In this document: one piece after another, positions 37,617 to 61,999 of the stretch
How the letters are laid out: the number at the start of each line of letters is the position of its first letter
Numbering within the stretch: position 1 is the stretch's first letter
DNA from: Raja brachyura
Lineage: Eukaryota
Reading direction: 5' to 3'
Assembly: GCA_963514005.1 (NCBI GenBank)
Contig: OY740804.1
Location: forward strand, 4,774,001 to 4,838,000
DNA: 64,000 bases
Program-made: the position numbers and the translations under genes
The notes under the pieces: model-generated
Databases searched by the model: none
Seen by the model: only the letters and a program-made list of their open reading frames with translations
Told to the model about the DNA's origin: nothing

Positions 37617-38970
37617 AAGAGCATATAGAGAGTCATTGTGGGATGCAGTTGGGTTGCGAGAATCAAACTTGGAATGAAGCAAAACCCCTCAGTAACAGTG
37701 GTGCAGCGGCAGAGCTGTCGTCTCACAGCGCCAGAGACCTGGATTTGATCCTGACATCATGCGTTGTCTGTGTGGAGTTTGCATGTTCTCACTGCGACAG
37801 TCGGGTTCTCTCCAGGCAGAAGGCAGAAGGTTCTCCCCTGACATCAGTCTTAAGAAGGGTCTTGACCCGAAACGCCACCACTCCTTCTCTCCAGAGATGC
37901 TGCCTGTCCCGCTGAGTTACTCCAGCATTAGTGTCTACCAGCGGCATGATAATTGATTTCTCCAACTGCAAGGAACCGTTGCATTCCTTCTCTCTCCATC
38001 TCTCCCCCCCCCCCCCCCCCCCCCCCCGTCTTCTTGCTAATTTCACTGTTTTTTATCCCTTCCTTATCACCTCATCCCCAGCAACAATGGACCATTGTGG
38101 ACTCCACCTTTCTTGAGTTATCGATGCAGACTCTGCGTTGTTCTCAGGGCCAGATTTACGTATAATCTTGACATGCTTCAATTTAGGGCCTCGAGATCTA
38201 GGGGGGGCTCGCAGAGCCGGATTTACCACTAGCTGAAGCCTAGGGCCGTGAAATCTTGGGGGCTCCGGTTAAGGCAGGACACCTGCCGTTCAACTCCGGG
38301 CGGGCCGCCCTCTCTATCCCTCTCTCTCTGTCACTCTCCGTCTCTGCCCGCCATCCGTGTCTGGGCCGCTGGGTCTCCGCTCTCCGCTCGCTCCTCATCC
38401 GCCGGCATGGCAATCCTCCTTGCACATCCTCCCCCCCTGCACATGCGCACAACCACAGCCAGCACGTCATCGACCGCCCTGCGCATGCGTACTGCCACGG
38501 CGCTGGCCACTTTCTCTCAACCCAAAACGGCACCTGCCTGGCCCACTGAGTTACTCCAGACATTATATGTCTGTTTTTGAGAAATAGGAAGTTGTGACGT
38601 TGATAAGAAGATTTGAACACCAGTGTAAATATTTTGAAACCAAATCATTGATTCTACGGGTTAGGGTTGTTATGACTGTGCAGGGTGGGTTATCAGATCT
38701 GTGAGGTGTGGAGAACCATGGTCAAGTCCAAATCCACCCACATGTCGCAGTGCCAGGGTGAAGGGTGAGTGGGGCAGAGCAGGGCGGGGCACTGGCACCA
38801 GAGTTAAACTCATAGAGTCATACAGCACAGAAACAGGCCCTTCTTCCCAACTTGACCATGCTGACCAAACTGCTTACCTGCACTAGTTTAGTTTAGAGAT
38901 ACAGCGTGGAAACTGGCCCTTCGGCCCACCGAGTCCGCACCGAACAGCATTCCCCACGCATTAATACTAT

Positions 38971-40112
38971 TCACGGTAAAGCACACGGTATTGGGGGTTC
39001 AGTATTGATGTGGATAGAGAACTGGCTAGCAGACAGGAAGCAAAGGGTAGGAGTAAACAGGTCCTTTTCAGAATGGCAGGCAGTGACTAGTTTGGTACCG
39101 CAAGGCTCAGTGCTGGGACCCCAGCTATTTACAATATATATTAATGATTTGGACGAGGGAATTCAATGCAACATCTCCAAATTTGCAGATGACACCAAGC
39201 TGGGGGGTATAGTTAGGTGTGAGGAGGATGCTTGGAGGCTGCAGGGTGATTTGGATAGGCTGAGTGAATGGGCAGATGCATGGCAGATGCAGTATAATGT
39301 GGATAAATGTGAGGTTATCCACTTTGGTGGCAAAAACATGAGGGTAGACTATTATCTGAATGGTGGCAGATTAGGAAAAGGGGAGATGCAACGAGACCTG
39401 GGTGTCATGGTACACCAGCCATTGAAAGTAGGCATGCAGGTGCAGCAGGCAGTGAAGAAAGCAAATGGTATGTTAGCATTCATAGCAAAAGGATTTGAGT
39501 ATAGGGGCAGGGAGGTTCTACTGCAGTTGTACAGGGTCTTGGTGAGACCACACCTGGAGTATGGCGTACAGTTTTGGTCTCCAAATCTGAGGAAAGACAT
39601 TCTTGCCATGGAGGGGGTACAGAGAAGATTCACCAGACTGATTCCTGGGATGTCAGGACTTTCATATGAGGAAAGACTGGATAGACTCGGCTTGTACTCG
39701 CTGGAATTTAGAAGATTGAGGGGGGATCTTATAGAAACTTACAAAATTCTTAAGGGGTTGGACAAGCTAGATGCTGGAAGATTGTTCCCGATGTTGGGGG
39801 AGTCCAGAACAAGGGGTCACAGTCTAAGGATAAGGAGGAATTCCTTTAGGACCGAGATGAGGAAAACATTCTTTACACAGAGAGTGGTGAGTCTCTGGAA
39901 TTCTCTGCCACAGAAGGTAGTTGAGGCCAGTTCATTGGCTATATTTAAGAGGGCGTTAGATGTGGCACTTGTGGCTAAAGGGATCAGGGGGTATGGAGAG
40001 AAGGCAGGTACGGGATACTGAGTTGGATGATCAGCCATGATCACATTGAATGGCGGTGCAGGCTTGAAGGGCCGAATGGCCTACTCCTGCACCTATTTTT
40101 CTATGTTTCTAT
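38971..40112 (+). mobile_element. 5'-truncated CR1-clade (HER1-like) LINE with open ORF2 C-terminus
   Basis: VPQGSVLGP, KFADDTK, YRVLVRPHLEY, RRLRGDLIETYKI, FFTQRVVSLWNSLP; 3'UTR ending ...cctattttctatgtttctat. Nested in a SINE (38886-38970 + 40113-40329). Confidence 0.95.
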
Positions 40113-41028: not shown

Positions 41029-41699
41029 GAGGGACTAGCGTACATGGGACACCTTGATCGGCATTGGCAAGTTGTTTCCGTGCTGTATCACTCCATGATT
41101 TTATGAATCACATCCTAAAACTAAGCTTTACCTGGTCTCCGATGCTCAAGTCTGTGAATTGTCCTTCAAGGAGTTTATCTGGTGACGTGTGGACTTAACT
41201 GATCGCGTTTGGCAATAGACAATAGGTGCAGGAGTAGGCCATTCTGCCGTTCGAGCCAGCATTACCATTCAATATGATCATGGCTGATCATCCCCAATCA
41301 GCACCCCGTTCCTGCCTTCTCCCCATATCCCCTGTCTCCGCTATGTTTAAGAGCCCTATCTAGCCCTCTCTTGAAAGTATCCAGAGAACCGGCCTACACC
41401 ACCCACAGTCTCACAACTCTCTGTGAAAAGGTTCACACATTCCAGGAGTAGAATTTGGCCATTCGGCCCATCGCGTCTACTCCTCCATTCAAACATGGCT
41501 GATCGCTGCCTCTTAATCCCATACAAGTTCAGACACAGTGTGCCCGCATTTGGGGAGGGGCTTCAGGAGGTGGGCAAGGGAATGTTTGCGGTGGTGGACA
41601 GAGCGCCAGTCAAGCGGGCAAACGTCACCAGGATGAAGCAGAGCTTCGAGGAGATGCTCCAATCCAGGCAACAGGAGAGCATTGCAGCCCACTCCTGAT

Positions 41700-41882: not shown

Positions 41883-41979
41883 ATGGCAGTGGGACAGGGA
41901 GAATTCACCCACCAGAAACGGCCCAGATCCAGGGGAACAGTCGCTCTGTTGCTTCTTGTTGCTGTTGGTCACACATCAG
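41883..41979 (+). CDS. CD300/pIgR-like receptor exon 1, signal peptide: MAVGQGEFTHQKRPRSRGTVALLLLVAVGHTS(G)
   Basis: Strong Kozak, basic n-region plus hydrophobic h-region, phase-1 donor CAG|gtaaat matching the phase-1 V exons. Not in the ORF track. Confidence 0.8.
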
Positions 41980-42469
41980 GTAAATCGTTGTTTTACAAAA
42001 TGCTCTGTTCATTAGAATTATTTACCAGCGCCTTGAATTATTTGTAACCACAGACCTCTCTGTACTGTGTGGGGAGCTGATGATAAATTGCTCAACACTC
42101 GTTAGTTCCTGTAGAGACTTCCATCAGCGCTTGTTGTAGTGTTGTGTGCAGCCAAATTGCACACAGCTAGCTCCCTGTGGAGAAGGGAAATAACTACCTA
42201 CAGCTTGCCTTGTGGACCTCACTGAAACTTACCGAATAGTGAAAGGCCTGGATAGAGTGGATGGGGTGGGGATGTTTCCACTAGTGGGAGAGTCTAGGAC
42301 CAGAGGTCGCAGCCTCAGAATTAAAGTCCGCAGCTGTCCCTGGTGATCTTGGGTATGGGGGTAACTTTTGGCCCCAGAACAGATAGTTTGCTCCACTATT
42401 CTGGTGCAAACTATCTGCAGGTGAACTTTCTCAGTGACTTGAGAGAGCAGACAGCGGATCAGCTAAATG

Positions 42470-42600
42470 CCTTGGCAAAGTGACATCACCTCCAGCAGTG
42501 GCGAGTTCCCTCAGTACCGCACTCCCTCAGTCCTCGAGCTTCGGGAGTGGGAGTTGAACCAACGACTCTCTGACTCGGTGACCAGAGTGCCACATGCTGA
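42470..42600 (-). mobile_element. Old DeuSINE (SacSINE1/AmnSINE-like) fragment
   Basis: Degenerate ...ccctcagtaccgcact...ggagtgggagttgaacc..ctctgactc.. pattern, recalled from the family rather than aligned. Confidence 0.45.
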
Positions 42601-42835
42601 ACTTTCGCTAGATGTCAATGCGGGCTCTTGGTGTGGCTCAGTTAGCCTGGGACAGAAGTTCTCCTCCTCTCTCCAACGAGAATTCTGCAACACCCTCCCT
42701 CGCTGTTCCCTCTCTGTGATTCCTCCTGCTCTCCGGCTCTGCGATCTACATTTCCTTATCACCATCTGCTTTGATCTATCGTTTTCACGCCTTACCCCTT
42801 GCATATCTCCTGACTTCCTCCGCTCCCCGACACTC

Positions 42836-42870
42836 GGTCTGAAGAAGGGTCTCGACCCGAAACGTCACCC
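42836..42870 (+). ncRNA. Minimal type I hammerhead ribozyme motif in a Penelope-like element terminal repeat
   Basis: GGU-CUGAAGA-A-GGGUC UC GACCC-GAAA-CG-UC^ACC: intact core boxes, stem II, palindromic ACGU stem III, short stem I. Confidence 0.75.
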
Positions 42871-44672
42871 ATTGCTTCTCTCCAGAGATGCCGCCTGACC
42901 CGCTGCGTTACTCCAGCATTTAGTGTCTATCAAAGACACACGGCACTCCCTCCACGCACTGCAATGGGAAATGTTGAACCTAAACCTTAGCACATTCAAA
43001 GAAAAAACCTGTGAAAGCCAGCAAATGGGAACAGGCGGGCATCTCAAATGAGGAAGCACCAGAGTGACTGTCCAATTTAGCATTTGGAGAAGTTGTGGTT
43101 ATCTGTTGTTCCTGAGAAAAACCAGCTGCCTTACAACAGACTCTGGTGCTCGAGCTGTTCTCCACACCGTCCTTTCCCCAGCCTCTGAGTTCCTTCAAGG
43201 CATTTGTCTTGTGGCTTGTGAGCGGACCTGGACTGATCTGATGATGTGTCTCCACCCCAGCTCCTGAATCTGCAGAGTTTCACATGTGTTAGAGTCATAG
43301 AGTGATACAGTGTAGAAACAGGCCCTTCAGCCCAACTTGCCCACACCGGCCAACATGTCTCAGCAACACTAGTCCCACCTGTCCACGTTTGGTCCTCGTC
43401 CATCAAACCTGTCCTATCCATGTACCTGTCTAACTGTTTCTTAAATGATGGGATAGTCCGTGCCTCAACTACCTCCTCTGGCAGCTTCATCCATACACCC
43501 ACCAGCCTTTGTGTGAAAAAGACACCTCATGATTATTCCAGGTGGACGTGGAGTTTGAAACATCAGTGGCAGATCCAGCTTCCACCACAGGCCGGGAAGT
43601 TTAGTTCAATGGGGCACAAAGTGCTGGCGTAACTCAGTAGGTCAGGCAGTATCTCATGGTCTTGACTTGTAACGTCACATATCCATGTTCTCCACAGATG
43701 CTGCCTGACCTGCTGAGTCACCACAGGCAACTGGCTATTCAGCTTTAGTAAAACACAAAGTGCTGGAGTAACACTGCAGGTCAAGCTGCATCTCTTGGTG
43801 ACTTTCCATTAGTGACTTTAGAGGTACAGCATGGAAACAGGCCCTTTGGCCCATCAAGTCCATGCCGTCCAGTGATCACCCGGCACACTAACCCTATCCT
43901 ACACACGAGGAGCAAATTACAATTTTAACAAAAGCCAATTAACCTACAAACCTGCACGTCTTTGGAGTGTGGGAGGAAACTGGAGCACCTGGAGAAAGCC
44001 CACGCTGTCACGGGGAGAACGTACAAACTCCGTACAGACAGCATCCGAGGTCAGCATCAAACATGGGTCTCTGGCGCTGTAAGGCAGCAACTGTACCCCT
44101 GTGCCACCATGTCTCTACCCATAACATGTTCTCCAGCGATGTTGCCTGACCCGCTGAGCCATCACAGGCAGCTGGCTAAGCAGCTTTAGTAAAGCACAAC
44201 GTGCTGGAGTAAATCAGCAGGACAGGCAGCATCTCTGGAGAACATGGATAGGTGACGTTTAGGGTTGAGACCTGAATAAGGGGTAGGCCATTTAGGACTC
44301 AGATGAGGAACAACCTTTTCACCCAGAGAGTTCCACTTTATCCAGAGATAGTTCCTGACCCGTTGAGTTACTCCAGCACTTTGTGTCCTTTTGTGTATTA
44401 ACCAGCATCTGCAGTTCCTTGTTTCTACTAGTTCAATGGGGAAGTGGGTTGTAGTGAGATTGAACACAGGGTGGGCCAGAGTGAGAGACACGTTGGCTTC
44501 CTGTCACATGACCACCACTCAGGTCAAGCCACGCCCACAGGGAAGGAGGATCTGGGTGCCAGGTAGATTCAGGAGCAGTTCTGCTTTCACTGGAACTTGG
44601 GGAACATTCCCGGTGAAATGGGAATTAACACCAGCGGGAAAAGCATTAAAGTGCAACGGGATCTATGCAAAA

Positions 44673-44854
44673 GAAGAGAGACACAAAATGCTGGAGTAAC
44701 TCAGCGGGACGGGCAGCATCTCTGGAGAGAAGGAATGGGTGAGGAAACATCACCCGTCGGTTTCTCCAGAGATGCTGCCTGTCCCGCTGAGTTACTCCAG
44801 CTCTCTGTGTCTATCTTTGGTGTAAACCAGCACCTGCAGTTCCTTGCTACACAT
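44673..44854. mobile_element. Penelope-like fold-back remnant
   Basis: Long inverted repeat flanked by the 13-bp direct repeat gatctatgcaaaa (44660-72, 44855-67). Similar fold-back remnants at ~335-490, 4575-4770, 5730-5925, 7215-7420, 43610-43790 and 44195-44430. Confidence 0.7.
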
Positions 44855-44885
44855 GATCTATGCAAAACCAGGAACCTGTCTGAAG

Positions 44886-44920
44886 AGTCTGAAGAAGGGT
44901 TTTGTCCCGAAACGTTGCCC
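44886..44920 (+). ncRNA. Minimal hammerhead ribozyme motif, second Penelope subfamily
   Basis: CUGAAGA-A-GGG UUUUGU CCC-GAAACGUU^GCC. A related copy lies on the - strand at ~50041-50074. Confidence 0.6.
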
Positions 44921-45106
44921 ATTTCCTCCGCTCCATAGATGCTGCTGCACCCGCTGAGTTTCTCCAGCACTTTTGTCTACCTTCGATTTTCCAGCATCTG
45001 CAGTTCCTTCTTAAACCCATAAGTACAAAGGACATGTTTTTTATTGTTAAACCTCAGCTTGTGTTGCTGCAGTGTGAGTGATCTTTCATCATTAATGTGC
45101 CAACAG

Positions 45107-45430
45107 GGTCAAGGGGAGAAACTGAACCCGAGGAGGTGAGGGGAGAGTTGGGGCAGTCGGTCACTGTGGAATGTCCGTATGATCGGAAATACAGTGACTA
45201 CAGGAAGCGATGGGTTAAAGGTGATGATTACAGGTCACCTGAGACCGTGGTTTCTACTGATCGCCCACAACAGGAGAGAACATCGATGACTGAAGACAAA
45301 GCACAACGGATAGTTTCAGTCACCATCGACAACCTGGTGAAGAGTGATGAAGGACGCTACTGGTGTGTGATAGTAAAGGGAAGAAATTCACCCGTTGAAT
45401 CGACCCCCATCTCATTGAAGGTTTCTGAAG
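45107..45430 (+). CDS. CD300/pIgR-like receptor exon 2, Ig V-type domain D1
   Basis: caacag acceptor, gtacgt donor, phase 1-1. Motifs GQSVTVECPY, KRW, SVTIDNL..SDEGRYWC, typical of the CD300/pIgR/TREM V-set. Confidence 0.9.
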
Positions 45431-45789
45431 GTACGTTGACGATCTCTCCTCACTCTCCCAGATGTGAAAATTCCAGCCTGGGAATTCCGGCCTCAGTCCT
45501 GACGGTGACTCTGTGCCACACAGCCGGGGGTAGGGGTGAGGGTGGTGGGGGGGGGGGGGGGGTGCCTACCTCATTTACTGGGGTCCCGGCCCATGGGGCC
45601 ACACCAACAGCCCACTGTCCCAGGAGCAGTATGGGGGGGATGTCAGACACCAGCCCCACGGAAGGTCCCAGCTACCGGCGACTCATTTACCCAAAGACAA
45701 TCGCTCCGGGACCAGAACCTCTGCCGCCCCCTCACTGGGGCAGGTGGGGGAAAACCGGCCCCTCACCCACCAAGGTGGGGAAAGGGGTC

Positions 45790-46092
45790 AAGGGGGGAGG
45801 GGAGGGGGCAGGTTAGTAGAAGATACTTAAAATTAGAGAATTCAACGTTCAAACCGTTGGGTTGTAAATTACTTAAGCGTAATACGAGGCGTGGTTCCTC
45901 CAATTTGCATGTGGCCTTATTCTGGCAATGGAGGAGGCCCTGGACAGAAAGGTCAGTGTGGGAATGGGAAGGGACGTTGACAGGGTTGGCAACCGGGAGA
46001 TAAAGAAGGGTCCCGACCCGAAAAGGACACCCATCCTTACTCCAGCTCTTTGTGTCTGGAGTAACCAGCACCTGCAGTTCCTTGCTACACAT
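45790..46092 (-). mobile_element. Penelope-like element 3' fragment (end of the GIY-YIG endonuclease ORF)
   Basis: Minus-strand translation ...SHSHTDLSVQGLLHCQNKATCKLEEPRLVLRLSNLQPNGLNVEFSNF, the typical C-terminus of vertebrate Penelope ORFs. Confidence 0.75.
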
Positions 46093-46208
46093 GATCTATG
46101 CAAAACCATGCACCTGTCTGAACAGCACAAATGACATGTTTTTTATTGTTAAACCTCAGCTTGTGTTGCTGCAGTGTGAGTGATCTTTCATCATTAATGT
46201 GCCCACAG

Positions 46209-46529
46209 GGTCAGGGGGAATAACTGGACCCAAGGAGGTGAGGGGAGAGTTGGGGCAGTCAGTCACTGTGGAATGTCCGTATCGTCAGGAATACAGAGAC
46301 AACAGGAAGCTATGGAGTAAAGGTTATTATTACCATTTTTCTGATACCGTGGTTTCCACTGATCAACTACGAGAAGGGAGAACATCGATGACTGATAACA
46401 AAACAGAACGGATACTTTCAGTAACCATCGACAAGCTGGAGAACAGTGATGAAGGAAGCTACTGGTGTGTCATACATGTTCGACAGAAGTTCAATGAAAG
46501 GACCTTCATCTCATTGAAGGTTTCTGAAG
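46209..46529 (+). CDS. CD300/pIgR-like receptor exon 3, Ig V-type domain D2
   Basis: cccacag acceptor, gtacgt donor, phase 1-1. ITGPKEVRGELGQSVTVECPY...SDEGSYWC; ~62% aa identity to D1 by hand alignment. Confidence 0.9.
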
Positions 46530-48107
46530 GTACGTTGACGATCTCTCCTCACTCTCCCAGATGTGAAAATTCCAGCCTGGGAATTCCCGGTCTCGGTCCT
46601 GACGGTGACTCGGTGCCACATCACCGGGGGTCCGTGGGGGGAGTTTGGGGGGAGGTGATGGGAGGTAGGGACGACTCGCTGCATGGGGCCACACCATGAG
46701 CCCACTGTCCCAGGAGCAGTGTGGGGGTGGGGGTGTGGGGGGGGGGCATCAATGGGGACCGGCGGTCCTGCTGCTGGCGGCTCAGTTCCCCAAAGACGAT
46801 CTTTCCTGGACCAGAACCTCTTGTGCCCCCTAACTGGGGCGGGGGGGGGGGGGGGTGAGGGGGAACTGCCCCCTCCCCCTCTCCACCTGCCCGTCACTGT
46901 CACACTCACCACACACACAACATCTTAAGAAGGGTCCCAACACTAAACATTGTCAGTTCATTCCTTCCACAGATGCTGCCTGACCTGCTGAGTTACTCCA
47001 GCACTTTGTGTTTTGCTCAAGATTCCAGCACCTGCAATTCCTTGTCTCTCACAAACTTTGGTGATTCATGAGCTCAGTTTATTTCTGTCATCTGTATTGA
47101 GGTGACAACAATAATAGATACTTTAAAGAGAGGGCTAGATAGGGCTCTTAACGATAGCGGAGTCAGGGGATATGGGGAGAAGGCAGGAACGGGGTACTGA
47201 TTAGGGATGATCAGCCATGATCACATTGAATGACAGTGCTGGCTCGAAGGGTCGAATGGCCTGCTCCTGCACCTATTGTTTATTGTCTCTTGTTATGAAG
47301 GCAACTGAACCAATCTATCACCAACTAGAGAGCGGTCCTGACCTGTCATCTACCTCATTGTCTATTGTCTTTGAGGTGCAGGGAAAAGCTTTTACCATGT
47401 TTCCAATGAGGGCCAAGTCATTGGGTATTTTTAAGGTGGAGATTGACAGGTTCTCCATTAGTATGGGTGTCGAGCGATATGGGGAGAAGGCAGGAGGTTG
47501 GGGTTGAGAGGGAGAGATACTGTAGAACAGCCATGATTGAATGGTGGAGTACACCAAAATGGGCCAAATGTCCTCATTCTGCCCCTATCACATGAACATG
47601 AGCGAAGAATCCTCATGAGATGAGTGATATAGACTTTACACTGAGCCACACAAACTATACAAGATGAGATACTCAACGGGTCGGACAGCATCTGTGGAGA
47701 GAGAACGAGAGTTAATGTTTCAGGTAGAAACCTCCAACCAAATTGCATTATTTCCAATTCAGTCCGCGTAATGAAAATAGGCCATGCATGCCCCTGCTCC
47801 CAAGTTCTTGTCCAACGTAGAAGACATGTGCCTAACTCTAGCAGCGGGCAGATAACACAGCCTGTGGGACTCTGAAGGCCATGAAAGAAGTCTCCGAATG
47901 CTTGCGACCATCCGGTGGCATCTTAATGGGTGAGCCTCCTGTCTAGATCAAGAGGCTTGGTCCATCTATGGTGGCCTCAGAAGGATCTTTGCCCAATTGT
48001 ATGGAGTGGGATTCAAACCAAGAATCTTCCACACTCCACTAAAGTGGCACAGAACGTCCTTTCAGACATTTGATGTTCAAAAACTTCATTTTCTTCATCT
48101 CCACAAG

Positions 48108-48264
48108 GGTCTCAAACAAGCCGCCCAGACATGGTCACCACCACCTCTACAACAATAAGCACAAGGGCTTCCACCACAACCACTCTGACCACCCTGCCTC
48201 AAGATGCACCAACCACCAAGAAAGCAAGTGCCACTGAGGCTTCTGGTTCAACACCTCCAAACAG
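48108..48264 (+). CDS. CD300/pIgR-like receptor exon 4, mucin-like Thr/Ser/Pro stalk
   Basis: Pyrimidine tract plus acaag acceptor, gttagt donor, phase 1->2. SQTSRPDMVTTTSTTISTRASTTTTLTTLPQDAPTTKKASATEASGSTPPN. Confidence 0.85.
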
Positions 48265-48869
48265 GTTAGTAACTCGAAGAACCAACTCAACCTCACCTGA
48301 GAACAAATTAGTTAAGTTCAGTTCAGCTCAGTTTAAAGATACAGCGTGGAAATGGGCCCTTTGGCCCGCTGAGTGCGCTCTGAGCAGCGATCACCCCATA
48401 CACCAGTTCTGTTCTACACACTAGGGACAATTTACAGAAACCAATTAGCCTACAAACCCGCACGTCTTTGGAATGTGGGAGGAAGCCGGAGAACCTGGAA
48501 AAAACTTGCGATCACAGGGAGAACGTACAAACTCTGTACAGACAGCACCGGTTGTCAGGATCGAACCCGGGTCTCCTGCGCTGTGAGGCAGCAACTCTAC
48601 CACTGCGCCACCGTGCCAACCCATAATGGTCAGCATGGTCTCAATGGGCCAAAGGGCCTGTTCCCATGTCATATCTCTAAACTCTAAACTACTTTATAGT
48701 TCCTTAAATACCAATAGAATTATTCACAATGTTCTAGAATTTAACCTGCACTGCATTCAAGTCTAGTTCCATATTTTTACTTACCGGATCGAAACGCATG
48801 GTTTGTTACTGGGGAGGGAATCAGTCCTATTACTATGAGCTCGTCATTGGTTTTTCTTGTATTTTTCAG

Positions 48870-48985
48870 GCAGGCAGTTACATTTCCATGGCAGGTTGTT
48901 CTATCGATTGCCTTGACAATTGTCTTTCTTCTGTTCATCGCTGCCATTATCCTATGTGTAAAAATAAGGCAGAAAAAGAAAACTG
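48870..48985 (+). CDS. CD300/pIgR-like receptor exon 5, transmembrane: QAVTFPWQVVLSIALTIVFLLFIAAIILCVKIRQKKKT
   Basis: tatttttcag acceptor, gtaagt donor, phase 2->1. A 22-aa uncharged hydrophobic helix followed by a basic stop-transfer cluster. Confidence 0.88.
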
Positions 48986-50074
48986 GTAAGTCCCGTTGAA
49001 TGTACGTAAATATCAAGGGACACTCTTGGTGATGAACAAAGTTTGGCACTTCTCTCTGAGGTGCCTTTCACAAACTCAGACCATTCACCTAGCGTATAAC
49101 AGCAGGGAAAGACACCAAGTGCCGGAGTAACTCAGCGGGTCTGGCAGCATCTCTGGAGAACATGGACAGGGGACATTTCAGGGCGGCACAGTGGCAAAGC
49201 GGGAGAGTTGCTGCCTTACAACGGCAGACATCCGGGTTCGATCCTGACTAATGGTGCTGTCTGTGTGGAGTTTGTACGTTCTCCCTGTAAGCGTGTGGGT
49301 TCACACCAGAGAGACAGGCCCTTTGGCCCAACTCGTCCTTACTGACGCCCAAGGTGCTTCCCTACTCTAGTCCCACTTACCTGTGGTTGTCCCACATCAC
49401 TCTTAAAGCTTTCTTCTCCATGTATCTCTCCAAATGTCTTTTAAACGCTGGAATTGGACTTGCCTTTACCACTTCCTCTGTCGGTTTGATCCGTGGGATG
49501 AGAGTGGTCAAATCTGGGGTGAATTGACAGGAAGATGGGGCGAATATAATGGGATTGTGGGGATAAATGGAAATGGATGCTTGATGGGCCAGCATGAGCT
49601 CAAAGGGCCAAAGGGCCTGCTTCCATACTGATGGTTCTGTGAAAACCATCTGGTTGGAAGCTGCAATAATATGCAGAAGTGCATCAGTCTTATCCAGATT
49701 GAACAAGAATGTTTTCATCTGCAAATGGTGCAGAGGAAGTGATGGCCACAGGAAGCCAGGAGACGATTGAGATCTTTCAGAAGCAGAAGGAGACAAACAT
49801 ATTTCCCAACAGGTTCAGACGTCGACGTCCTGTTATTTAGCTAAGTGATGACACGTGAACCCACTGAATCTCCATGCAGTGAAATTATCCGGAAATTGTA
49901 AAGCCGTTTTGAAGTAGAACCCTTGGAAATGTCCAGGAACGGTGGATGTAAGATCTGCAGGAGGAAGGCAGGAGAGATGACTGGTGACAACTTTGCTGAA
50001 TTCATCAAGTCATAGAACTATACAGCACTGGAAGGAAATAGGCAAAGTTTCGGGCCAAAACCCTTCTTCAGACT

Positions 50075-50690
50075 AAATTGGCTGGGATTGACTGGCAAAC
50101 TATACTTGACAGTGGAGATGCAATGGCAAAGATTTAAAGACCGCAAGGAAGAACTCCAGAAATTGTTCATCCCTGTCTGGCGAATAAATAGAACTGGGAA
50201 GGCGGCTCAACCATGGCTGACGAGGGAAGTCAAGGATAGTGTTAAATCTAAGGAAGAGGCATATAAATTGGCCAGAAGTAGTGGCAAACCAGAGGTCTGG
50301 GAGAAATTTAGAACAGAGGAGGACAAAGGGGTTAATTAAGAGGGGGGGAAAGAGCATGAATGAAAGCTTGTGGGGAATATAAAAACTGACTGTAAACGTT
50401 TCTTTAGGTAAGTAAAAAGGAAAAGATTAGTGAAGACAAATGTAGGTCCCTTACATAAGATAGTTGTGAGTCTGTGGAACACTGCCACAGAAGGCAGTGG
50501 AGGCCAATTCACTGGATGTTTCCAAGAGAAAGTTCAATTTAGCCCTTAGGGCTAAGGGAATCAAGGAATATGGGGGAAAAAGGAATGGGATACTGATTTT
50601 GGATGATCAGCCATGATCATATTGAATGGCGGTGCTGGCTCAAAGGGCCAAATGGCCTACTCCTGCACCTATTTTCCATTTTTCCATGGA
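50075..50690 (+). mobile_element. Internally deleted CR1 LINE (post-endonuclease linker joined to 3' end)
   Basis: QWQRFKD...PWLTREVKDSVKSKEEAYK segment followed directly by 3'-end sequence. Confidence 0.75.
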
Positions 50691-51614
50691 AAAATTGTCC
50701 GTAATGCAGGATAACGTTAGTGTGCGGTGATCGCTGGTCGGTGCGGACTCGGTGGGCCGAAGGGCCTGTTTCCACGCTATGTCTCAAAACTATTTACCAT
50801 ATCCAAGAAATGGTAAATATGTTACCTGCCAGGTCATAATGAGGTTTCCCATGAGATTTAACATTGTTCTACAGTGAACTGTGTCATGAAGCAACTATTC
50901 CATAATCCAATGGAACTTCCTGAAGCTTTCATAAAATGCTACATAAATACAATATCCTACTTCGGACATTCTGATGCAGAAAATTTCCATCAAGTCTCTA
51001 TAATTTTAATAAAGGGTAGTGCAGTGGAGCAACTGGTAGAGTTGCAACTCGCAGCACCAGAGTCCAGAGTTCGATCCTGACCTCGGGTATTGCCTGCGTG
51101 GAGTTTGCACGTTCTCCCAATTGACCGCATGGGTTTCCTCCAGGTGCTCCGGTTTCCTTCCACATCCCACTTTGGGACAAGTACACGGATAGGAGAGGTT
51201 TAGAGGGATTTGGGCCAAATGCAGGCAGGTGGGACTCATGTAGATGGGGGCATGTTGGTTGGCGTGGCCAAGTTGGGCCGAAGGGCCTGTTTGCGCACTG
51301 TATGACCCAATCCCAAAGGTGTGTAGGTTAGTAGGTTAATTGACCTCTATAAATTGCCCCACTGCTATCGGTGGCAGCGAATTCCACAGATTCCACAGAT
51401 TCACAACTCTCTGGGTGAAAAGTGTATCTCTGGGAGAACTAATGTGAACGGGTGATCAATGGTTGGTGGGCTGAAGGGCCTGTTTACATATTGTATTTCT
51501 AAACTAAGTTTCATGAAAGGGAATCAAGTATGACATCAATGGATAAAATGCAACATTATCTTTGCGTGTTTGACTTCAAGTCCATATAAGATTTAATTCT
51601 CTTTTTTTTTTCAG

Positions 51615-51661
51615 GCTCAAATGGCCAGATAGGTCAGGAAAATCCAGCAGACAGTTTCACG
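51615..51661 (+). CDS. CD300/pIgR-like receptor exon 6, short cytoplasmic exon: (G)SNGQIGQENPADSFT
   Basis: Very strong poly-T cag acceptor, gtaagg donor, phase 1->0, bridging the TM and terminal exons in frame. Confidence 0.8.
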
Positions 51662-52173
51662 GTAAGGCAATGCCACAGCATGTTGTAGCCCCAGGGAAAT
51701 AAAGCAACCTTACTGGAGGTCACCCTTGAAGGGTCACACATCACATGACATATCGATCACTTGACCGCTCATAACATGGCACCTAAATGATCGAGTGCCC
51801 ATCCTTGGCCTTCTCCACTGCCTTGGTGAGGCCAGGCACAAACTCAAAGCACAACATCTGGGTTCAATCCTGACCACGGGTGCTGTGTGTGTGGAGCTTG
51901 CAGGTTCTTCCTGTGACCACCTGGGTTTCGTCTGGATGCTCCGGTTTCCTCTCACATCCTAAAGACGGGCAGGTTTGTAAGTGAATTGCCCTCCATAAAT
52001 TTCCCCCAGTGGGTAGGGAGTGGATGAGAAAGTGGGATAACATAGATCTAAGGTGGACAGGTGGTCAATGATCGCTGTGCGGCAGTAGGTCTACCAGCTG
52101 CACCACTGTGCCCATCCTTTCACTTCCTTTGTTGCCATTAATGGTCTCTACTGAGTTCACTCCTGTTGTCAGT

Positions 52174-52498
52174 GGGCGGCACAGTGGCACAGCGGTAGAG
52201 TTACTGCCTCACAGCGCCAGAGACCCGAGTTCCATCCTGACCTCGGATGCTGTCTGTGCAGTGTTTGCACGTTCTCCCTGTGACCGCCCGGGTTTTCTCC
52301 GGGTGATCCGGTTTGCTCCCACATTCCAAAGATGTGCAGGTTTGTAGATTAATTGTCTTCTATAAATTGTCCCCAAAGTGTGGGATGCGAATCTGGGATA
52401 ACATGGAACAACTGTTAACGGGTGATTGATGGTCAGCGTGGACTTGGTGGGCCAAGGGGCCTGTTTCCATTCAGCATCTCTAAACTAAACTAAACTAA
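52174..52498 (+). mobile_element. tRNA-derived V-SINE (HE1-like), full length
   Basis: tRNA-like head with A/B boxes, V-domain (gtttgcacgttctccctgtgacc), CR1-shared 3' end, (taaac)n tail. Confidence 0.85.
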
Positions 52499-52830
52499 GT
52501 AATTATGTTTAGGTCTGAAGAAGGTTCTCGACCCAAAATGCCACCAATTCCTTTTCTCCAGAGATGTTGCCTGACCCGCTGGTTACTCCAGCATTTTGTG
52601 TTTGCTGTCCTCAAAAAGGCAGCCAGCATCATCAGAGACCCACACCACCCTGGCCGCACTCTCATTTCACCACTGCCATCGGGAAGAAGGTACAGGAGTC
52701 CAAATCCCCAAGTCTCCATCCCCTCCCCTGAACGTCCAGGTTCAGGAACAGCTTCATCCCTACAGCCATCAGGGTGTTAAACACAGCAACCTCAAATAAG
52801 GTCCAAACTACATAGTCTTGGGGGCATTGG

Positions 52831-53023
52831 NNNNNNNNNNNNNNNNNNNNNNNNNNNNNNNNNNNNNNNNNNNNNNNNNNNNNNNNNNNNNNNNNNNNNN
52901 NNNNNNNNNNNNNNNNNNNNNNNNNNNNNNNNNNNNNNNNNNNNNNNNNNNNNNNNNNNNNNNNNNNNNNNNNNNNNNNNNNNNNNNNNNNNNNNNNNNN
53001 NNNNNNNNNNNNNNNNNNNNNNN
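52831..53023. other. Assembly gap (193 N)
   Basis: Run of n in the sequence. Confidence 1.
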
Positions 53024-53037
53024 CTGACACTATCTTT

Positions 53038-53370
53038 GAGAAAGAACTGCAGATGCTGGAAAAGTCAAAGGTAGACAAAAATGCTGGAGAAACTCAGCGG
53101 GTGAGGCAGCATCTACGGAGCGATGGAATAGGTGACGTTTCCGGTTGGAGATGTCAATGTTCAAGTAACCCTTGCTTTCCCTCTCTCTCCATCCCCTCCC
53201 CTTCCCAGTTCTCCCACCAGTCTTACTGTCTCCGACTACATTTTATCGCTCTACCGCCCACTCTCCTGACATCAGTCTGAAGAAGGGCCTCGACCCGAAA
53301 CGTCACCTATTCCTTCGCTCCATAGATGCTGCCTCACCCGCTGAGTTTCTTCAGCATTTTTGTCTACCTT
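53038..53370. mobile_element. Penelope-like element remnant (inverted pseudo-LTR pair with hammerhead)
   Basis: Inverted arms (aaaaatgctggagaaactcagcgggtgaggcagcatct... / ...agatgctgcctcacccgctgagtttcttcagcatttttgtctac), flanked by the 14-bp direct repeat ctgacactatcttt (53024-37, 53371-84). Confidence 0.75.
53274..53310 (+). ncRNA. Minimal hammerhead ribozyme motif (Penelope-associated)
   Basis: CUGAAGA-A-GGGCCUCGACCC-GAAACGUC^ACC, inside the element 53038-53370. Confidence 0.7.
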
Positions 53371-53415
53371 CTGACACTATCTTTAAGTAATTATGTTTCT
53401 CACTTGACTCCAAAG

Positions 53416-53571
53416 GCAACCCCTGTCATTTATAGCACCGTGACAACCCGTTCCCCAGCTAGCACGGAGAATACTTACATGAACCTTCAGGATCTGAACA
53501 CACAAGGACAAGCCAAGAGGCAAGGTGCCGCAGAAGTTGTGTACGCAACAATTCTCACTGATAATAATTAA
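53416..53571 (+). CDS. CD300/pIgR-like receptor exon 7, signalling tail: ATPVIYSTV...NTYMNL...EVVYATILTDNN*
   Basis: ccaaag acceptor, phase 0. Two ITIM-consensus motifs (VIYSTV, VVYATI) and a TAA stop. Candidate poly(A) signals at 54461 and 54780. The N-gap in the preceding intron could hide another exon. Confidence 0.85.
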   Translation, partial: ATPVIYSTVTTRSPASTENTYMNLQDLNTQGQAKRQGAAEVVYATILTDNN

Positions 53572-55883
53572 TTCAAGCACCGGAGAACACCAAGAATGCA
53601 TTGGAAACGGACAGTCTGGTAAAGTTGTCTTTGCTTACCCACAAATACAGACATTTGCGTTCAGATCTCACCAAGAACAGTGCATGGTCATCAAGATAGC
53701 TGGAGATTTTGGGAATCTGATAAAGATAGGACATAGGAAAGTCCAACAGGCCCTTCGGCCCACAATATTCGTGCCGAAAATGAAAAATGCAAAAACACTC
53801 AGCAGGTCAGGCAGCACCTGTGGAGATAGAAACAGAGATAACATGATAGTTCGATTACCTTAAGGTGAGAGGGGAAAGATTTAGTAGGAAACCAAGGTTC
53901 AACTTTTTCACTCAGAGGGTGGCGGGTGTAAGGAACAAGCTGCTGTAGGAGGTAGCTGAGGCAGGTACTATAACAACATTTCAAAGACTTTTGGACAGGT
54001 ACATGGATAGGAAAGGTTTAGAGGGATATGGGCCAAATGCGGAAAGGTGAGACTATCATAGATGGGTTGGCAAGGACAAATTGGGCCAAATGGCCTGGTT
54101 CGTGCTGTATGTCTCTTAGAGTTTGTATTCAACGTAAGGAAATAAGTGCAGAAATAGGCCATTCAGCCCTTCAAGCCAATTCCGCCATTCAACACAATCA
54201 TGGCTGATCTGCCTCCAACTTCATCTCCTCTCAGTGCCAGTTCCTTAAAGCCCTTGACTCGTTGCCCCTTCAAACTCCTCTTTAAATACCCCTAATGATC
54301 CAGCCTCAATAACCTCCCAGTAGCAGGTTATTCCAGGGATTCATCACTCTGTTCCCCTTTCCACAAATGCCGCCGAACATGTTGAGATTTTCCACCATTT
54401 TTCTTTGGCCTTAATCAGAACAGCTGTGGAATTTGAACTGCTATTAATTTGTGATTTTAAAATAAATATGTATAGGTACTGTTGAACACAAAACTGCCGG
54501 CTTGGTGCTAAAACTCACGGGTTGACTTTCCACCATCCAGTTAACCAAGAAAAACAGTACTGTTACTAAGTCATAGAGCCACACAGTGCGGAAACAGGCC
54601 CACGTGCTTTACAGACAATTGCTTTAATTTCCCCGTATTTGTGAATGTTTACGTGAAGCGCAGTGGCTTGCAAATATGTGTATGAGGAACAGGAACCGCA
54701 AGTGAGAGATTGTGTAAATATCTACAAATGTTTTGTAAAGAAACATCTACAGATGACATGGGAGATGTTGTAAGCATACAATAAAGTACACTTGTCTTCT
54801 GAATACCTGGTGAGCCCAAGATTTTACCGACTTTGTCGAAGGTGGTTTTGCGGATGGATGTAGAACACAGAACAGCACAGGAACAGGCCCTTCAGCCCAC
54901 ATTGTCCATGCCAAACATGAGGCAAAGTTAATCTGATCTCATCTGCCTGCACATAGTCCACTATCCCTCCACCCCCTGCATATCTATGTGCCTATCTTAT
55001 ACTTGTACTGAAATGTATACAAAAATGAATTTCACTGTACCTCGTTACATGACAAATAAAGTACCATACCATACTATCTAAAAGCCTCAGTGGGCCGAAG
55101 GGCCTCTATCTCTAAAGTCTAAACAAAGAGTGCCACAGCGATAGATTTGCTGCCTCATGGCGCAGGAGACCCAGGTACGATCCTGACCACGGGTGCTGTC
55201 TGTGTGGAGTTTGTACGTTTTCCCTGTGATCGTGTGGGTTTTCTCCGGCTTCCTCCTGCAATCCAAAGACGTGCAGGTTAATTGGCTTCTGTAAATTGCC
55301 CCTAGTGTGTAGGATAGAACTAGTGTGTGGGCGATTGCTGGTCGATGTGGACTCAGCGGGCCGAAGGACCCGTTTCCACACTGTATTTCTAAACTAAACC
55401 AAAGCATTACATATTAGATGGGAAATGGGAAAAATCAATAGCTGAAGCAAAGTCAGTTGCATCAGAGGACCATCGGTCTACAATCGAGCTTCACAACGCA
55501 TGTGGAAAGAGAAGTTGTTTCAATTGCAATGTCCTTCAAGCAGCAACTCTACCGCTGCGCCACCGTGCTGCCCCGTGAAAAAGCCTCTGGTTATTAAACT
55601 GGAAGAGACGTGGGGAGTGGGGGGGGCACAAACTGTGCGAGTGAGTGGGGGGTGGGGGGGCAAAACACACATTTCCGCTGGCAATTTTCATTGCTCCTGT
55701 TCGTCTAACAGAAGGAGAACATTTTGTTGCATTTAATAGTTTTTCATGTTTTCATGCATGTATGGGAGCTAACTCTGCACACTGTCTCAGTGTACCAGTA
55801 CTATATATACACTTGCACTGTGTCTGAGATGCTTATCTAAGATATATCCAAGTGCTTATGTATAGTGATCCTTGAACTGATCA

Positions 55884-57495: not shown

Positions 57496-58824
57496 CATGC
57501 TCGAGTGGTTTCCATAACCTTTGACTCTCTTACCCTGAGTCAATCATGCTTACAATTTCACAATGTAAAGTTCTGCAATTGGAGCTCACGTTCCTGGTCA
57601 CAATATGCGTGACACTTTCCCAGCACCGCTGACATGCAGTAAATGATTGCATTCATTGCACAACCACCATTTTTACTCATACCAATAAAAAATTGCTCAA
57701 AACTGCAAACCAGAACTGTCCCATTGAAATTCAAGGCACAGTACTCTCCTGATTACTGAAAGGCCACAGCTGACACTGGCATTTCTAAGTTTGGTTTAGT
57801 TTAGAGGAACAGTGGCGGTGGAGGCCGATTCTCTGGATACTTTCAAGAGAGAGCGAGATAGGGCTCTTAACGATGGCGGAGTCAGGGGATATGGGGAGAA
57901 GGCAGGAACGGGGTACTGATTGGGGATGGTCAGCCATGATCACATTGAATGGCGGTGCTGGCTCGAAGGGCTGAATGGCCTACTCCTGTATCTATTATCT
58001 ATTGTCCATTGTCTATTGAACCAACCGCTTAGGCCCACCAAGTCTGCGGCGACCAGCGATCCCTGCACACTAACACCATCCTACACATCAGGGACAATTT
58101 ACAATTATACCAAGCCCATCAGTCTACAATCCTGCACGTCTTTGGAGTGTGGGAGGAAACTGGAGATCCTGAAGAAAACCCAACGCAGGTTACGGGGAGG
58201 ACGTACAAACTCCATACAGACAGGCACCTGTAGTTAGGATCGAACCCGGGTCTCTGGTGCTGTGAGGCAGCAACTCTACCGCTGCGCCCCTAGATATTAT
58301 GATACCTTATGATATTCCAAGTCTGTCTATATTGAGATACAAGAAGACCTTCATACCTGGTCTACTCCATCCATGGAGGTCAAGATCACATTGACTCCCA
58401 TCTTCCTAGTTGTAGGATTTGACCATCGAGGCAGCATGTCTCCGCAGCATCAGAGAGGTTATCATGGTAATGAATTAGAATCATAGACTCATAATTATAT
58501 AGCACGGAAATAGACCCTTCACCCATCCATGCTGACCAAAATGCCCCACCTGAGTAGTCCCATTTGGCAGCATTTGATCCATATCCCTCTAAACCATTCT
58601 TATCCATATACCTGTCCAATTGCCTTTTAAATGTTGTTTTACTTCGGAGTCACGTGAGTGACTACGTGAAGAAGACCCCGCCTGGCGCTGGAACGGCATT
58701 ACGTCGACGCTATCGGCAGCGAAAGAGCTGCAGAGCGCAGCTCCACACACAGCGGTAAGGAACCGGCCCGCAGGTAAGGAAGTTTTACAAAATTTAGGGC
58801 GAGGTTTCAGAACTCCGTAGCCTG

Positions 58825-60080
58825 GTGGGAAAACCAGGAGGAGTTAGTAAAAAAAATAAAAATAAAAATAAAAAAAAACAAAAACAAAATGGAGAAGGCC
58901 AAAAAAAACAGCGGGTAATACGTGCGTCCCGGGGTGTTGTAGAGTCGGGACAGCAGATTGCGGAGCCGGTTCCGATACCGGTGGCCGTTGAAACACCCGT
59001 TAGTGAGGCTTTGATTACTCCACAAACAGAAACTGTAGAGGAAATCCCAGTGCCTAAAAAATGTAACAGGAAAGCTGAAAGGCCTGGGGTTTCTGAGGAC
59101 TCTGATTCTGAAGGTCCAGAAAGGAAAGCCTTATGGCTCAGAATGGACCAAATGGAGAAAATTGCTCCAGACTATAATCAACCAAGGGTCTAAGAACCCA
59201 GAATATTCCCAGGCAGCCCCTGAGGGGGTCCATATCGTGAATATGGTGCCAATTCGATTTGGGAATTGAAACCCCAGTGCCTGGGTATGGACTGGAGGTA
59301 ATCTCCTTGAACAAGTTTCAGGAGAACCAGGGCTGTATGAGACAGACCCTGAAAGTGGTGATTGTGGTCCGGAGTACACACCACAATGGATCCAGGTGTG
59401 CCTGATGTGGCACAAGATTTTGCTATACCTGGAGGAAGCGGTGAGGCCATGGAAGATAACCTGGCGGCCAATATTAATTATATGGTCTCTCACCCGCTTC
59501 AAGATGCTGTTATGGTTGAGACAGCAGAAATGTATAAAACATCTATCAATTGTGCCTCTTTGAAGGTACCTACGGTGAATCCAGTTGTTTGGGCGCCAAT
59601 GTCTTCAATTATGCGGGCGCAATGAATTCGATTTCAAAGAGTCCTCAAGCTGTTTTCAGCTGGCATTACTGCACCTGGCAGATTAGTGGAAGGATGTGGA
59701 ATGACCAAAGTGCAGAAACATATGTTGGCCTTATTTTGCAACTCATTTGAGATTAATTGTATGAGTAAGATTGCCATTCGACCTCTATTACATTCAAGAT
59801 TTGCAGGATTGTGTAAACCAAGCAATGTTCAAACTCCTAGAGGGTTTTGTTCGGAGAGGATTTGTCTAAACAAATTAAAGAAATGGATGAAGAGGCAAAG
59901 ACTTTTGGTCGTATGAAACCCTTCACCTTTGGCCAGAAATGGACTGGCTATATAAAAAGGGATTTGACTTGGAGCTGGTACAAGCCGAGGCAGGAGTATG
60001 ATAAGGGACATTTTCCAGCCAACACAGCCAAATGTACGCCCATTTATTGGGAAAGGAAGTCATTTCGTCCAGGTGGAGAG
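58825..60080 (+). pseudogene. DIRS gag-like ORF1 remnant (fragmented)
   Basis: Consecutive ORF pieces (58825, 59362, 59686, 59847) including LKVPTVNPVVW and LFGEDLSKQIKE-like segments at the expected position. Confidence 0.6.
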
Positions 60081-60099
60081 GTACATAAACATTATCCTA

Positions 60100-61999
60100 T
60101 TAAGAGGAATGTTGGGATGAGCCACAGATTGGTGGTAGACTCCAAATGTTTTATGAGGAATGGGACAATATTACAGTTGATCGTGTTGTATTAGACACTG
60201 CTGAGAGGATTTACCATTGATTTTGTGGAAGGTATGGATCCATTGGGACGGAATGAGTCTAGTCATTATTTGATGTTCTCAGAGAGTGAGGAAATTCAAA
60301 TTGTTAAAGAGATTAAAAATTTGAGTAAAAAAGGAGTTATTTAGAATCTGGAGAGGATCCACAACAATTGTATCAAACATTTTTCCCAGAACAAAGAAAG
60401 ATGGGGGTTGTAGGATCATTTTAGATCTCACACTTTTGAATGAAACATTTGTCCAGTGTAAACATTTTAAAATGGACACATTTCACACTGCAATGCAGTT
60501 GGTATCAACAGGCTGTTATATGGCTACACTAGATTTGAAGGAGGCTTATTATTCCGTCCCAATTCATCATAGTTTTCGCAGGTATTTAAAGTTTAAATGG
60601 ATGGGACAGCTGTGGCAATACAAGCTTTGTCTAATGGATTAAGTTCAGCACCTAGATTGTTCACTTAATTGTTAAAGCCAGCACTTGCACTGCTAATGGC
60701 ACCAAAACACATCGTTAGGGTTTATTTAGATGACATTTTAATTGTCAATGCTAATCAGGAATCAGCTGGGAAATCAGTCTCAGCAACCATTAGCTTGTTT
60801 GAGAAGTTGGGTTCCTGATCCATCCAACAAAGTCTAAGTTACAGCCATCCCAAACCATTGAATATCTGGGGTTTGTGATTAACTCAGTCACCATGTTGGT
60901 AACTTTACCAATGGATAAGGAGTTAGATTTGACAAATGTGTGTCAAAACCTGATTAACAAACCTTATCCCTCCATCCGAGAGGTTGCCAAGGGTATTGGT
61001 AAATTGGTAGCAGCATTTCCAGCAATAGAATTTGGTCGTTTACATTACCAAAATCTTCAAAGGGCAAAAACTAAAGCGCTAATTCAGCGAGCAGGCCATT
61101 TTGATAGGCCAATGCAATTGCCTAAGGAAGCTGTATCGGAATTACATTGGTGGATTGAGAATGTTCCACAAGCTGCTAAGAACATTTTGGTTCATCAGCC
61201 AGTCGTGTTTTACAAACTGACGCAAGCTCGCTCGGATGGGGGGCTACGGACAATGAGACCAGCTGTGGGGGCAGATGGGCTGTCCAAGAGGATTTATTGC
61301 TCCAAACATATGGTATTAATTATTTGGAGCTACTGGGAGCATTTTATGGATTTAAAGCTTATTGCTCTTCATTAAAGGATTTGCATGTCCAAGTACAAAT
61401 AGATTACACCACAGCTGTGGCATATATCAATCACATGGTGGTGTCAGATCAAAATTAATGTGATCATCTGGTAACCAGATATGGCAGTGGTGTATTGCAA
61501 AAATACTTGGCTTTCAGCTATTTATCTCTCGGGGAGAGACAATGTTGTGGCAGACAAAGATCACGAATATTTAAAGACAATACAGAATGGATGTTAAATC
61601 CAAAAATTTTCAAAAATATTGTCAGTCGGTATGGAGTACCGGACATTGATCTGTTTGCATCTAGATTGAATCACCAATTGCCGAAATACGTGTCTTGGGA
61701 ACACGATCCAGGGGCAGTAGCGGTGGATGCTTACTCGCTACACTGGGGGAATATGTTCTTTTATGCTTTTCCCCCATTCTGTCTCATTGGGCAATGTCTC
61801 AAGAAAATAGCGCAAGACGCTGCCAAAGGCATTTTGGTGGTGCCAGTTTGGCCCACACAGTCATGGTTCCCATTGATGCTTAAAATGATTATTGAACCAT
61901 GTATGGTAATTCCCAGTGCGACAATCTGTTCACACAACCAGTAACAAAAGAAATTCATCCATTGCATGATCATATGAATTTGTTAATCTGCAGGTTCTG
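60100..61999 (+). pseudogene. DIRS reverse transcriptase / RNase H / DNA adenine-methyltransferase-like ORF remnant
   Basis: KKDGGCRIILDL, LDLKEAYYSVPI, VYLDD (~60720-34), TDASSLGWG, INYLELL, DLFASRLN...YAFPPF...VPVWPTQSWF. Multiple frameshifts and stops (e.g. TAA 60666-68). Confidence 0.9.

Follow-up and report, generated by a model that had tools for sequence, protein, structure and literature searches.

A two-V-domain CD300-like gene with a predicted inhibitory tail in the MDIR cluster of the skate Raja brachyura

Gene structure and orthologues

We analysed a 64,000-nucleotide stretch of the genome of the skate Raja brachyura (the window), which corresponds to positions 4,774,001–4,838,000 of contig OY740804.1, referred to below as C24 and used for all C24 coordinates. 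A chain of seven exons in the window encodes a predicted receptor with a leader, two V domains, a mucin-like stalk, a transmembrane (TM) helix and a tail with two candidate immunoreceptor tyrosine-based inhibitory motifs (ITIMs; Table 1). Spliced together, the exons give 1218 nt and a 405-aa product ending in a stop codon, with no internal stop; 6/6 introns are GT..AG and their phases run 1, 1, 1, 2, 1, 0. In tblastn searches, RefSeq models of Leucoraja erinacea (P0004) and Pristis pectinata (P0064) matched all seven exons in order, with weak scores for the 47-nt exon 6 (E 1.2 and 0.33). Because batoid RefSeq proteins match each exon in order, the chain is not a product of chance: the seven-exon model is correct and the gene is intact. 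Exons 2 and 3 are Pfam V-set domains (E 1.9e-14 and 1.7e-13), and exon 1 shares 85–91% identity with the N-terminal 33 aa of skate RefSeq models. The TM segment has a hydropathy peak of 3.15 (residues ~309–330) and no charged residue, and the tail motifs fit (I/V/L/S)xYxx(L/V/I), the combination by which ITIM receptors are recognized. The tail also carries a YxN motif, the docking consensus of Grb2-type adaptors.

Table 1. Features of the receptor gene, in window coordinates
Feature	Position	Strand	Remarks
Exon 1, start codon and leader (putative signal peptide)	41883..41979 (97 nt)	+	Phase-1 donor
Exon 2, V domain 1 (V1)	45107..45430 (324 nt)	+	Cys55-Cys119 the sole Cys pair; groups with A. 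radiata V1
V1 C-C' loop	45214..45240	+	Val69 and Pro77 at the positions of the second Cys pair in stingray relatives
Exon 3, V domain 2 (V2)	46209..46529 (321 nt)	+	Cys163-Cys227 the sole Cys pair; one N-glycosylation sequon, Asn204
V2 C-C' loop	46316..46342	+	Ser177 and Ser185 in place of the second Cys pair; includes the subfamily's most variable position
Tandem duplication, V-exon cassette with intron flanks	45022..46849	+	Period ~1.1 kb; 80% identity over 743 nt
Exon 4, mucin-like stalk	48108..48264 (157 nt)	+	47% Ser/Thr
Exon 5, uncharged TM helix and basic stop-transfer stretch	48870..48985 (116 nt)	+	Helix at ~48895-48960
Exon 6, membrane-proximal tail	51615..51661 (47 nt)	+	Two codons shorter than that of L. 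erinacea
193 N in intron 6	52831..53023	.	Unreadable
Exon 7, signalling tail and stop codon	53416..53571 (156 nt)	+	
ITIM 1, VIYSTV, Tyr360	53425..53442	+	Tyr invariant in 10/10 aligned shark and ray tails
YxN motif, YMNL, Tyr375	53476..53487	+	Tyr and Asn invariant in 10/10 aligned tails
ITIM 2, VVYATI, Tyr397	53536..53553	+	Tyr invariant in 10/10 aligned tails

The best relatives of the product are all from skates, namely Amblyraja radiata XP_032898105 (78% identity over 357 aa), L. erinacea (75%, rising to 92% in the tail) and R. longicauda (71%). The skate RefSeq models labelled 'pIgR-like' or 'CMRF35-like molecule 3' (XP_032898105, XP_055510916/917, XP_078276598) share the exon plan at 70–78% identity and, judged by these similarities, are orthologues or close paralogues of the window gene. 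The L. erinacea and R. longicauda models have the same ITIM tail, whereas the A. radiata model has a different last exon without ITIMs, and the number of V domains is 1–4 in these models compared with two in R. brachyura. They are automatic annotations, for which our literature search returned no functional study. These results bear out much of what an earlier, sequence-only reading of the window had proposed: splice sites, phases and batoid matches confirm its seven in-phase exons, the domain order from leader (a putative signal peptide) to two ITIMs holds, the uncharged TM and paired motifs make an inhibitory architecture, and the cartilaginous fish that it deduced is a skate.

Several smaller observations concern the ends of the gene. 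Beyond the stop codon, at a distance of 80 nt, there is another good splice acceptor (window 53651-53863, + strand). RefSeq model P0005 of A. radiata reaches a tail without ITIMs through the matching acceptor, which may reflect either an isoform lacking ITIMs or an error of annotation. Upstream of exon 1, a stretch at window 41540-41695 (+) recurs ahead of every subfamily leader exon, and RefSeq model P0002 has a stretch of this type as its last coding exon, which suggests that the model is chimeric. In shark relatives (P0017, P0021, P0074) the start Met lies ~18 codons further downstream and the upstream stretch is still recognizable; skate leaders have a long basic N-region because they lack this shark-type downstream Met. 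A hidden exon inside the intron-6 N stretch is unneeded, as orthologues have no extra exon there, and read-through of V exons into their introns, seen as long open reading frames, was ruled out by donors conserved in 7/7 copies. Among the listed matches of contigs from four sequencing runs, which were dominated by repeats, no exon–exon joint appeared at the locus. A 210-nt contig from run X1, a run whose RNA origin is a guess, matched the TM exon and nothing else (48867-48983), its flanks remaining unaligned, and was not counted as expression.

A subfamily in the MDIR cluster, its binding site and its activating relatives

We searched C24, from the window to 6.17 Mb, together with three other stretches, using a profile of 445 related V domains. 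The search returned 71 matches (66 full length, 5 partial), 70 of them on the C24 stretch and one on contig C47. The 65 full V exons on C24 lie between 4.82 and 5.90 Mb, a cluster of ~1.1 Mb of which the window gene (4.82 Mb) is the first member, at the edge. The V domains of MDIR2, MDIR3 and MDIR5 of the clearnose skate, in which Cannon et al. reportedly described the MDIRs in 2006, match cluster exons 0.2–1.0 Mb from the window gene at 80–92%, and we identify the cluster as the MDIR cluster for this reason. It contains many Tyr-motif tails and six copies of one exon encoding a TM with an Arg (Arg-TM), a seventh copy being on C47. Like the MDIRs (described in the excerpted text of PMC3031540), the window gene belongs to a common cluster in which CD300/pIgR-type V domains occur in variable number and inhibitory and Arg-TM forms stand side by side. 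However, MDIR2/3/5 have C2-like modules, whereas the window gene is V-only, lacks the second disulfide and has different leader, stalk and tail exons; its V domains are 30–42% identical to theirs. On this comparison, which covers MDIR2/3/5 and leaves room for a match to MDIR1 or MDIR4, the window gene is none of the three and appears to belong to a sister subfamily in their cluster.

In the R. brachyura genome, the subfamily comprises seven full V exons (two in the window gene, four at C24:5.23–5.27 Mb and one on C47), which are 62–72% identical to V2 of the window gene. Phylogenetic analysis placed the subfamily in a single clade of 22 rows (support 100/99), with sharks and batoids apart, separate from an MDIR2/3/5 clade (100/99). 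The subfamily fell outside the pIgR D1 clade (99/92) and the D5 clade and did not group with two rodent CD300-like rows. The alignment had ~110 columns and included no FCAMR, FCMR or TREM rows, and six rows were excluded for their long or unstable branches; because there are only ~110 columns, the tree does not settle the sister group. Excerpts of a zebrafish NILT study describe a similar impasse on orthology (bioRxiv 10.1101/2022.04.21.489081). Relatives of the subfamily V exons were found in electric ray, stingray, mantas, sawfish, horn shark, sevengill, white shark, smooth-hound and catshark; the subfamily is as old as the shark–ray split and not specific to skates. Across species the V number ranges from 1 to 5, a variation explained by tandem copying of a V exon along with its intron flanks, as seen for the two V exons of the window gene.

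The claims of the sequence-only reading about kinship fared unevenly against these data. Its view that the gene has no clear mammalian orthologue agrees with the position of the V domains outside the pIgR D1/D5 and rodent CD300 groups. Its description of the gene as lineage-specific stands at the level of sharks plus rays and fails at the level of skates. The V-domain phylogeny that it had called for yielded a well-supported clade, apart from MDIR2/3/5, pIgR and rodent CD300, and left the sister group unsettled in approximately unbiased (AU) tests. The gene is not an isolated novelty, because it sits among the skate MDIR genes already published and has orthologues in RefSeq as 'pIgR-like' or 'CMRF35-like', and the hint at an immunoglobulin (Ig)-transport or Fc receptor found no positive support. 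The earlier reading also passed over the lost second disulfide and Ca2+ Asp, the Arg-TM partners and the excess of amino-acid change described below. In a literature search that covered few subscription journals and no supplements, no paper on the subfamily, its altered site, pairing or selection was found.

The fold of the V domains is of the CD300/pIgR type, as had been proposed. An AlphaFold model of V2 (predicted local distance difference test score 95.7) matched mouse CD300lf best (Z 20.0, root-mean-square deviation 1.4 Å over 105 residues), followed by human CD300f (Z 19.2), teleost pIgR (18.0), CD300a (17.2), pIgR D1 (16.5) and TREM2 (16.2). In CD300lf, according to excerpts of PMC6166816, the C-C' disulfide forms the floor of the lipid cleft and Asp98 holds Ca2+. 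Both V domains of the window gene have two Cys each, and their C strands read RWVK and LWSK, with no YWCR motif and no C-C' disulfide. The second Cys pair is present in 59/59 other full V exons of the cluster but in 0/7 of the subfamily. At the position equivalent to Asp98 (F-strand Cys+8, mapped by offset from that Cys and not by superposition), V1 has Ser and V2 has Phe, in contrast to Asp in the rodent CD300-like rows, and the equivalent of CD300lf Tyr34 is also missing from both domains. Within the 22-row clade, both Cys occur in seven rows (stingray, mantas and three sharks), one in three and none in 12; among the last, own_X_5229 and two own-genome neighbours were scored from the cluster V-exon count. 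The tree needs at least three changes between intact and lost disulfide; the counts give no direction, and the outgroups are intact.

Comparison of the seven subfamily V exons revealed more nonsynonymous (dN) than synonymous (dS) change in 19 of the 21 pairs, with means of 0.182 and 0.110; in bootstrapping, 95% of the differences fell between 0.007 and 0.125. The introns flanking these copies are 94–95% identical, compared with 86% for the V exons themselves. A codon model gave an omega of 2.35, and fixing omega at 1 cost 6.9 log units (2dlnL = 13.9; p ~2e-4, chi-square). The most variable V2 positions are 42, in the C-C' loop (7 states), and 91 and 95 (6 states) with 89 and 92 (5 states) around the FG loop; these fall in loops that line the cleft in CD300. 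Together, these values are good evidence of diversifying selection on the V exons, without constituting a site map. The three tail tyrosines and the Asn of the YxN motif are invariant from skates to sharks (Table 1).

The genome also encodes apparent partners. There are two subfamily ITIM genes, the window gene and a one-V gene at C24:5.270–5.291 Mb; exon 5 of the former has a 98% identical DNA copy at C24:5275901. A complete paralogue at C24:5.222–5.232 Mb mirrors the window gene, with leader, two V domains and stalk followed by an Arg-TM and a short tail, and its V1 differs from that of the window gene by a dS of 0.04 and a dN of 0.19. A one-V Arg-TM paralogue lies at C24:5.260–5.268 Mb, and seven Arg-TM exons of this kind were found in all. 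Uncharged and Arg TM types are both present in sharks and stingrays too. Two loci, at C12:63.08 Mb and C24:19.85 Mb, encode zeta/FcR-gamma-type TM exons (CD247- or FCER1G-type); a 2014 survey, in the portion available as excerpts, reports that no FcR-gamma was found in sharks (PMC4016189).

Three further observations concern these relatives. One Arg-TM subfamily member, at C47:7.345–7.352 Mb, is on another contig and outside the cluster. The stalk exon of the second ITIM gene (C24:5,275,290-5,275,360) has gained 69 nt in frame from a fragment of a common repeat, and ~16 nt of the flank is duplicated. A divergent two-V subfamily occurs five times, at C24:4.843–4.850, 4.94, 5.16–5.20 and 5.30–5.31 Mb, and ends either in an uncharged TM with an ITIM tail or in an Arg-TM exon identical in type to that of the subfamily studied here. 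The TM/tail module thus appears to be common to unrelated ectodomains in the cluster.

A probable inhibitory half of a paired receptor set

We consider it probable that the product of the window gene is the inhibitory member of a set of paired leukocyte receptors. It likely signals through SHP-1/2, and its fast-changing loops likely bind a ligand that is not a lipid and is probably a protein. A non-lipid ligand is likely because the disulfide and the Ca2+ residue of the CD300 lipid pocket are missing. ITIM receptors are clustered by ligand and phosphorylated on tyrosine, whereupon they recruit SHP-1/2 and damp signals from immunoreceptor tyrosine-based activation motifs (ITAMs). By this scheme, a ligand would cluster the receptor, Src-family kinases would phosphorylate Tyr360 and Tyr397, SHP-1/SHP-2 would dock on both ITIMs and a Grb2-type adaptor on Tyr375. 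The Arg-TM paralogues would pair with a zeta/FcR-gamma-type ITAM adaptor, and their signals would be damped. ITIM-type inhibitory signalling is described for CD300A in the excerpted text of PMC12447643. The pattern fits the usual race between paired receptors: pathogens exploit the inhibitory receptor, and activating copies evolve in response.

Several results weigh against parts of this interpretation. The excess of dN over dS is not confined to the loops (0.34/0.21 in loops, 0.13/0.08 elsewhere), and the selection result rests on seven paralogous exons, among which gene conversion can distort the tree model; the similar ratio in loops and elsewhere, the small sample and likely gene conversion are why the signal provides no site map. 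The second disulfide has also been lost in rabbit pIgR D2, in a sturgeon domain and, according to excerpts of PMC12447643, in lemur and loris CD300A/C, so that its loss alone is no proof of a new ligand class. The Asp at Cys+8/+9 is absent from 37/59 other cluster V exons too. Finally, none of four AU tests rejected joining the clade to another group (pIgR D1, p 0.054; CD300, 0.097; pIgR D5, 0.34; MDIR-type clade, 0.26).

Alternatively, the receptor could be inhibitory but have retained the sensing of lipids or dying cells known from CD300a and CD300f, with aromatic C-C' loop residues replacing the disulfide floor. We regard this as unlikely. CD300lf is the closest fold, the Trp that precedes the F-strand Cys has been retained, the V2 C-C' loop is rich in Tyr, His and Phe, and the lemur and loris losses concern receptors of the CD300 family itself. 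However, the disulfide and the equivalents of Asp98 and Tyr34 are all absent from both domains, and a lipid head group, being invariant, should lead to conservation of the site rather than to dN > dS. More broadly, the likeness to CD300a/CD300f and to the CD300A–CD300C pair extends to the V fold (Z 17–20), the Ser/Thr stalk, the uncharged TM with ITIM tail and the existence of activating relatives. CD300 receptors have a single V domain (excerpts of PMC3031540) compared with the two V exons here, and carry the C-C' disulfide and Ca2+ Asp that the window gene lacks; their partners use a TM Glu or Lys instead of Arg. The architecture is thus CD300a/f-like, although with two V domains and no second disulfide the gene is not a CD300 in the strict sense.

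Another reading, which we consider improbable, is a receptor for the Fc of IgM, IgW or IgNAR, which could be a transporter of the pIgR type or an Fc receptor with inhibitory function. The top sequence matches in the Protein Data Bank are to pIgR, helped by summing over its five domains, RefSeq labels the 3–5 V orthologues 'pIgR-like', and the gene shares with pIgR, FCAMR and FCMR a V-domain superfamily and tandem V domains. The motif RHTRKYWC in the pIgR D1 loop has a role in Ig binding; it is unmatched in the window gene, whose similarity to D1 is weak (11.5 bits for V1, 17–19 bits for V2) and whose V domains lie outside the D1 and D5 clades. An ITIM tail takes the place of a pIgR-like tail, the V number ranges from 1 to 5 through recent exon duplication, and a multigene, fast-evolving family with diversifying selection and activating partners fits poorly with a conserved Ig ligand. 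In favour of this reading, C24 also carries genes that presumably flank PIGR and FCAMR in mammals; against it, SARG, at C24:1.05 Mb, is 3.8 Mb from the window gene, and no V exon of the subfamily type was found in C24 0.93–1.16 Mb (230 kb around SARG). Excerpts of reviews describe cartilaginous fish as without pIgR and Fc receptors (PMC4016189, PMC13337447) and Ig transport in them as unexplained (PMC13337447).

That the gene is a silent or decaying recent copy, its amino-acid excess reflecting relaxed constraint, is equally improbable. The cluster does contain fragments and broken V exons (the 5 partial matches among 71), V1 has odd changes relative to orthologues, and a His interrupts the hydrophobic stretch of the leader; yet no exon, splice site or motif is damaged, relaxation would yield an omega up to 1 and not 2.35, and the tail has stayed close to that of L. 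erinacea. Least credible is the broadest version, in which the shark-and-ray subfamily would supply the antibody-Fc receptors that cartilaginous fish seem to lack. It would consist of an ITIM receptor and activating partners coupled to FcR-gamma, with a protein-binding face instead of a lipid pocket, and its ancient cluster, on a chromosome that bears the PIGR- and TREM-flanking genes as well, would be the cradle of the PIGR and TREM families.

Paired CD300-like skate receptors have been known since the MDIR report, so that taken by itself the gene is unremarkable, and automatic annotation has already picked it up in related skates. What the analysis adds is a well-supported second subfamily of the MDIR cluster, with a binding site unlike the CD300 pocket, and a matched inhibitory/activating pair, apparently under diversifying selection, that offers concrete reagents for a ligand search. 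It would be a mistake to read the name 'pIgR-like', which RefSeq gives to these genes, as denoting a shark pIgR.

Chromosomal surroundings

In mammals, genes of the SARG/C1orf116 block presumably flank PIGR/FCAMR, NFYA flanks TREM, ATP5PB flanks TMIGD3 and TTYH2 flanks CD300. C24 carries a Sushi–PFKFB–YOD1–SARG block, corresponding to the PFKFB2–YOD1–SARG genes near the mammalian Ig receptors, with a laminin gene after SARG (1.05–1.10 Mb). With the laminin gene in place of FCAMR/PIGR, synteny is broken where mammals have their Ig-receptor genes. ATP5PB lies at C24:1.31 Mb, 0.26 Mb from SARG, with no V exon found in the 50 kb downstream of it. NFYA, which we take to adjoin the TREM/NKp44 cluster in mammals, is at C24:7.02 Mb, away from the V cluster of the window gene, and 6.92–7.12 Mb (~100 kb either side) contained no V exon of the subfamily type. 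Two Tweety genes, the single marker used for a 17q25-type CD300 neighbourhood, are on C21 and C23 and not on C24. Queries with the markers IL10 and STRIP gave no match, and control queries were equally silent. The cluster is therefore on one chromosome with the neighbours of 3/4 mammalian loci and adjacent to none, a position that bears on where the CD300/pIgR/TREM superfamily arose.

The immediate neighbours of the cluster are an AHCYL-type (S-adenosylhomocysteine hydrolase-like) gene upstream (window ~6,950-26,770, +), with a probable 3' untranslated region reaching ~30.5 kb of the window, and a G-alpha-i gene downstream that starts at 5.926 Mb. Judged by the gene content of the chromosome, these are probably AHCYL1 and GNAI3, the exons fitting AHCYL1/AHCYL2 and GNAI1/GNAI3 alike. 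The window also contains a tandem repeat at ~29000-29240 (unit ~22 nt, at least 10 copies) and two retroelements whose class was judged by eye: a reverse transcriptase fragment of the long interspersed nuclear element type at 38897-40021 (+), and a second element at 58700-63200 with reverse transcriptase/RNase H-like frames at 60803-61944.

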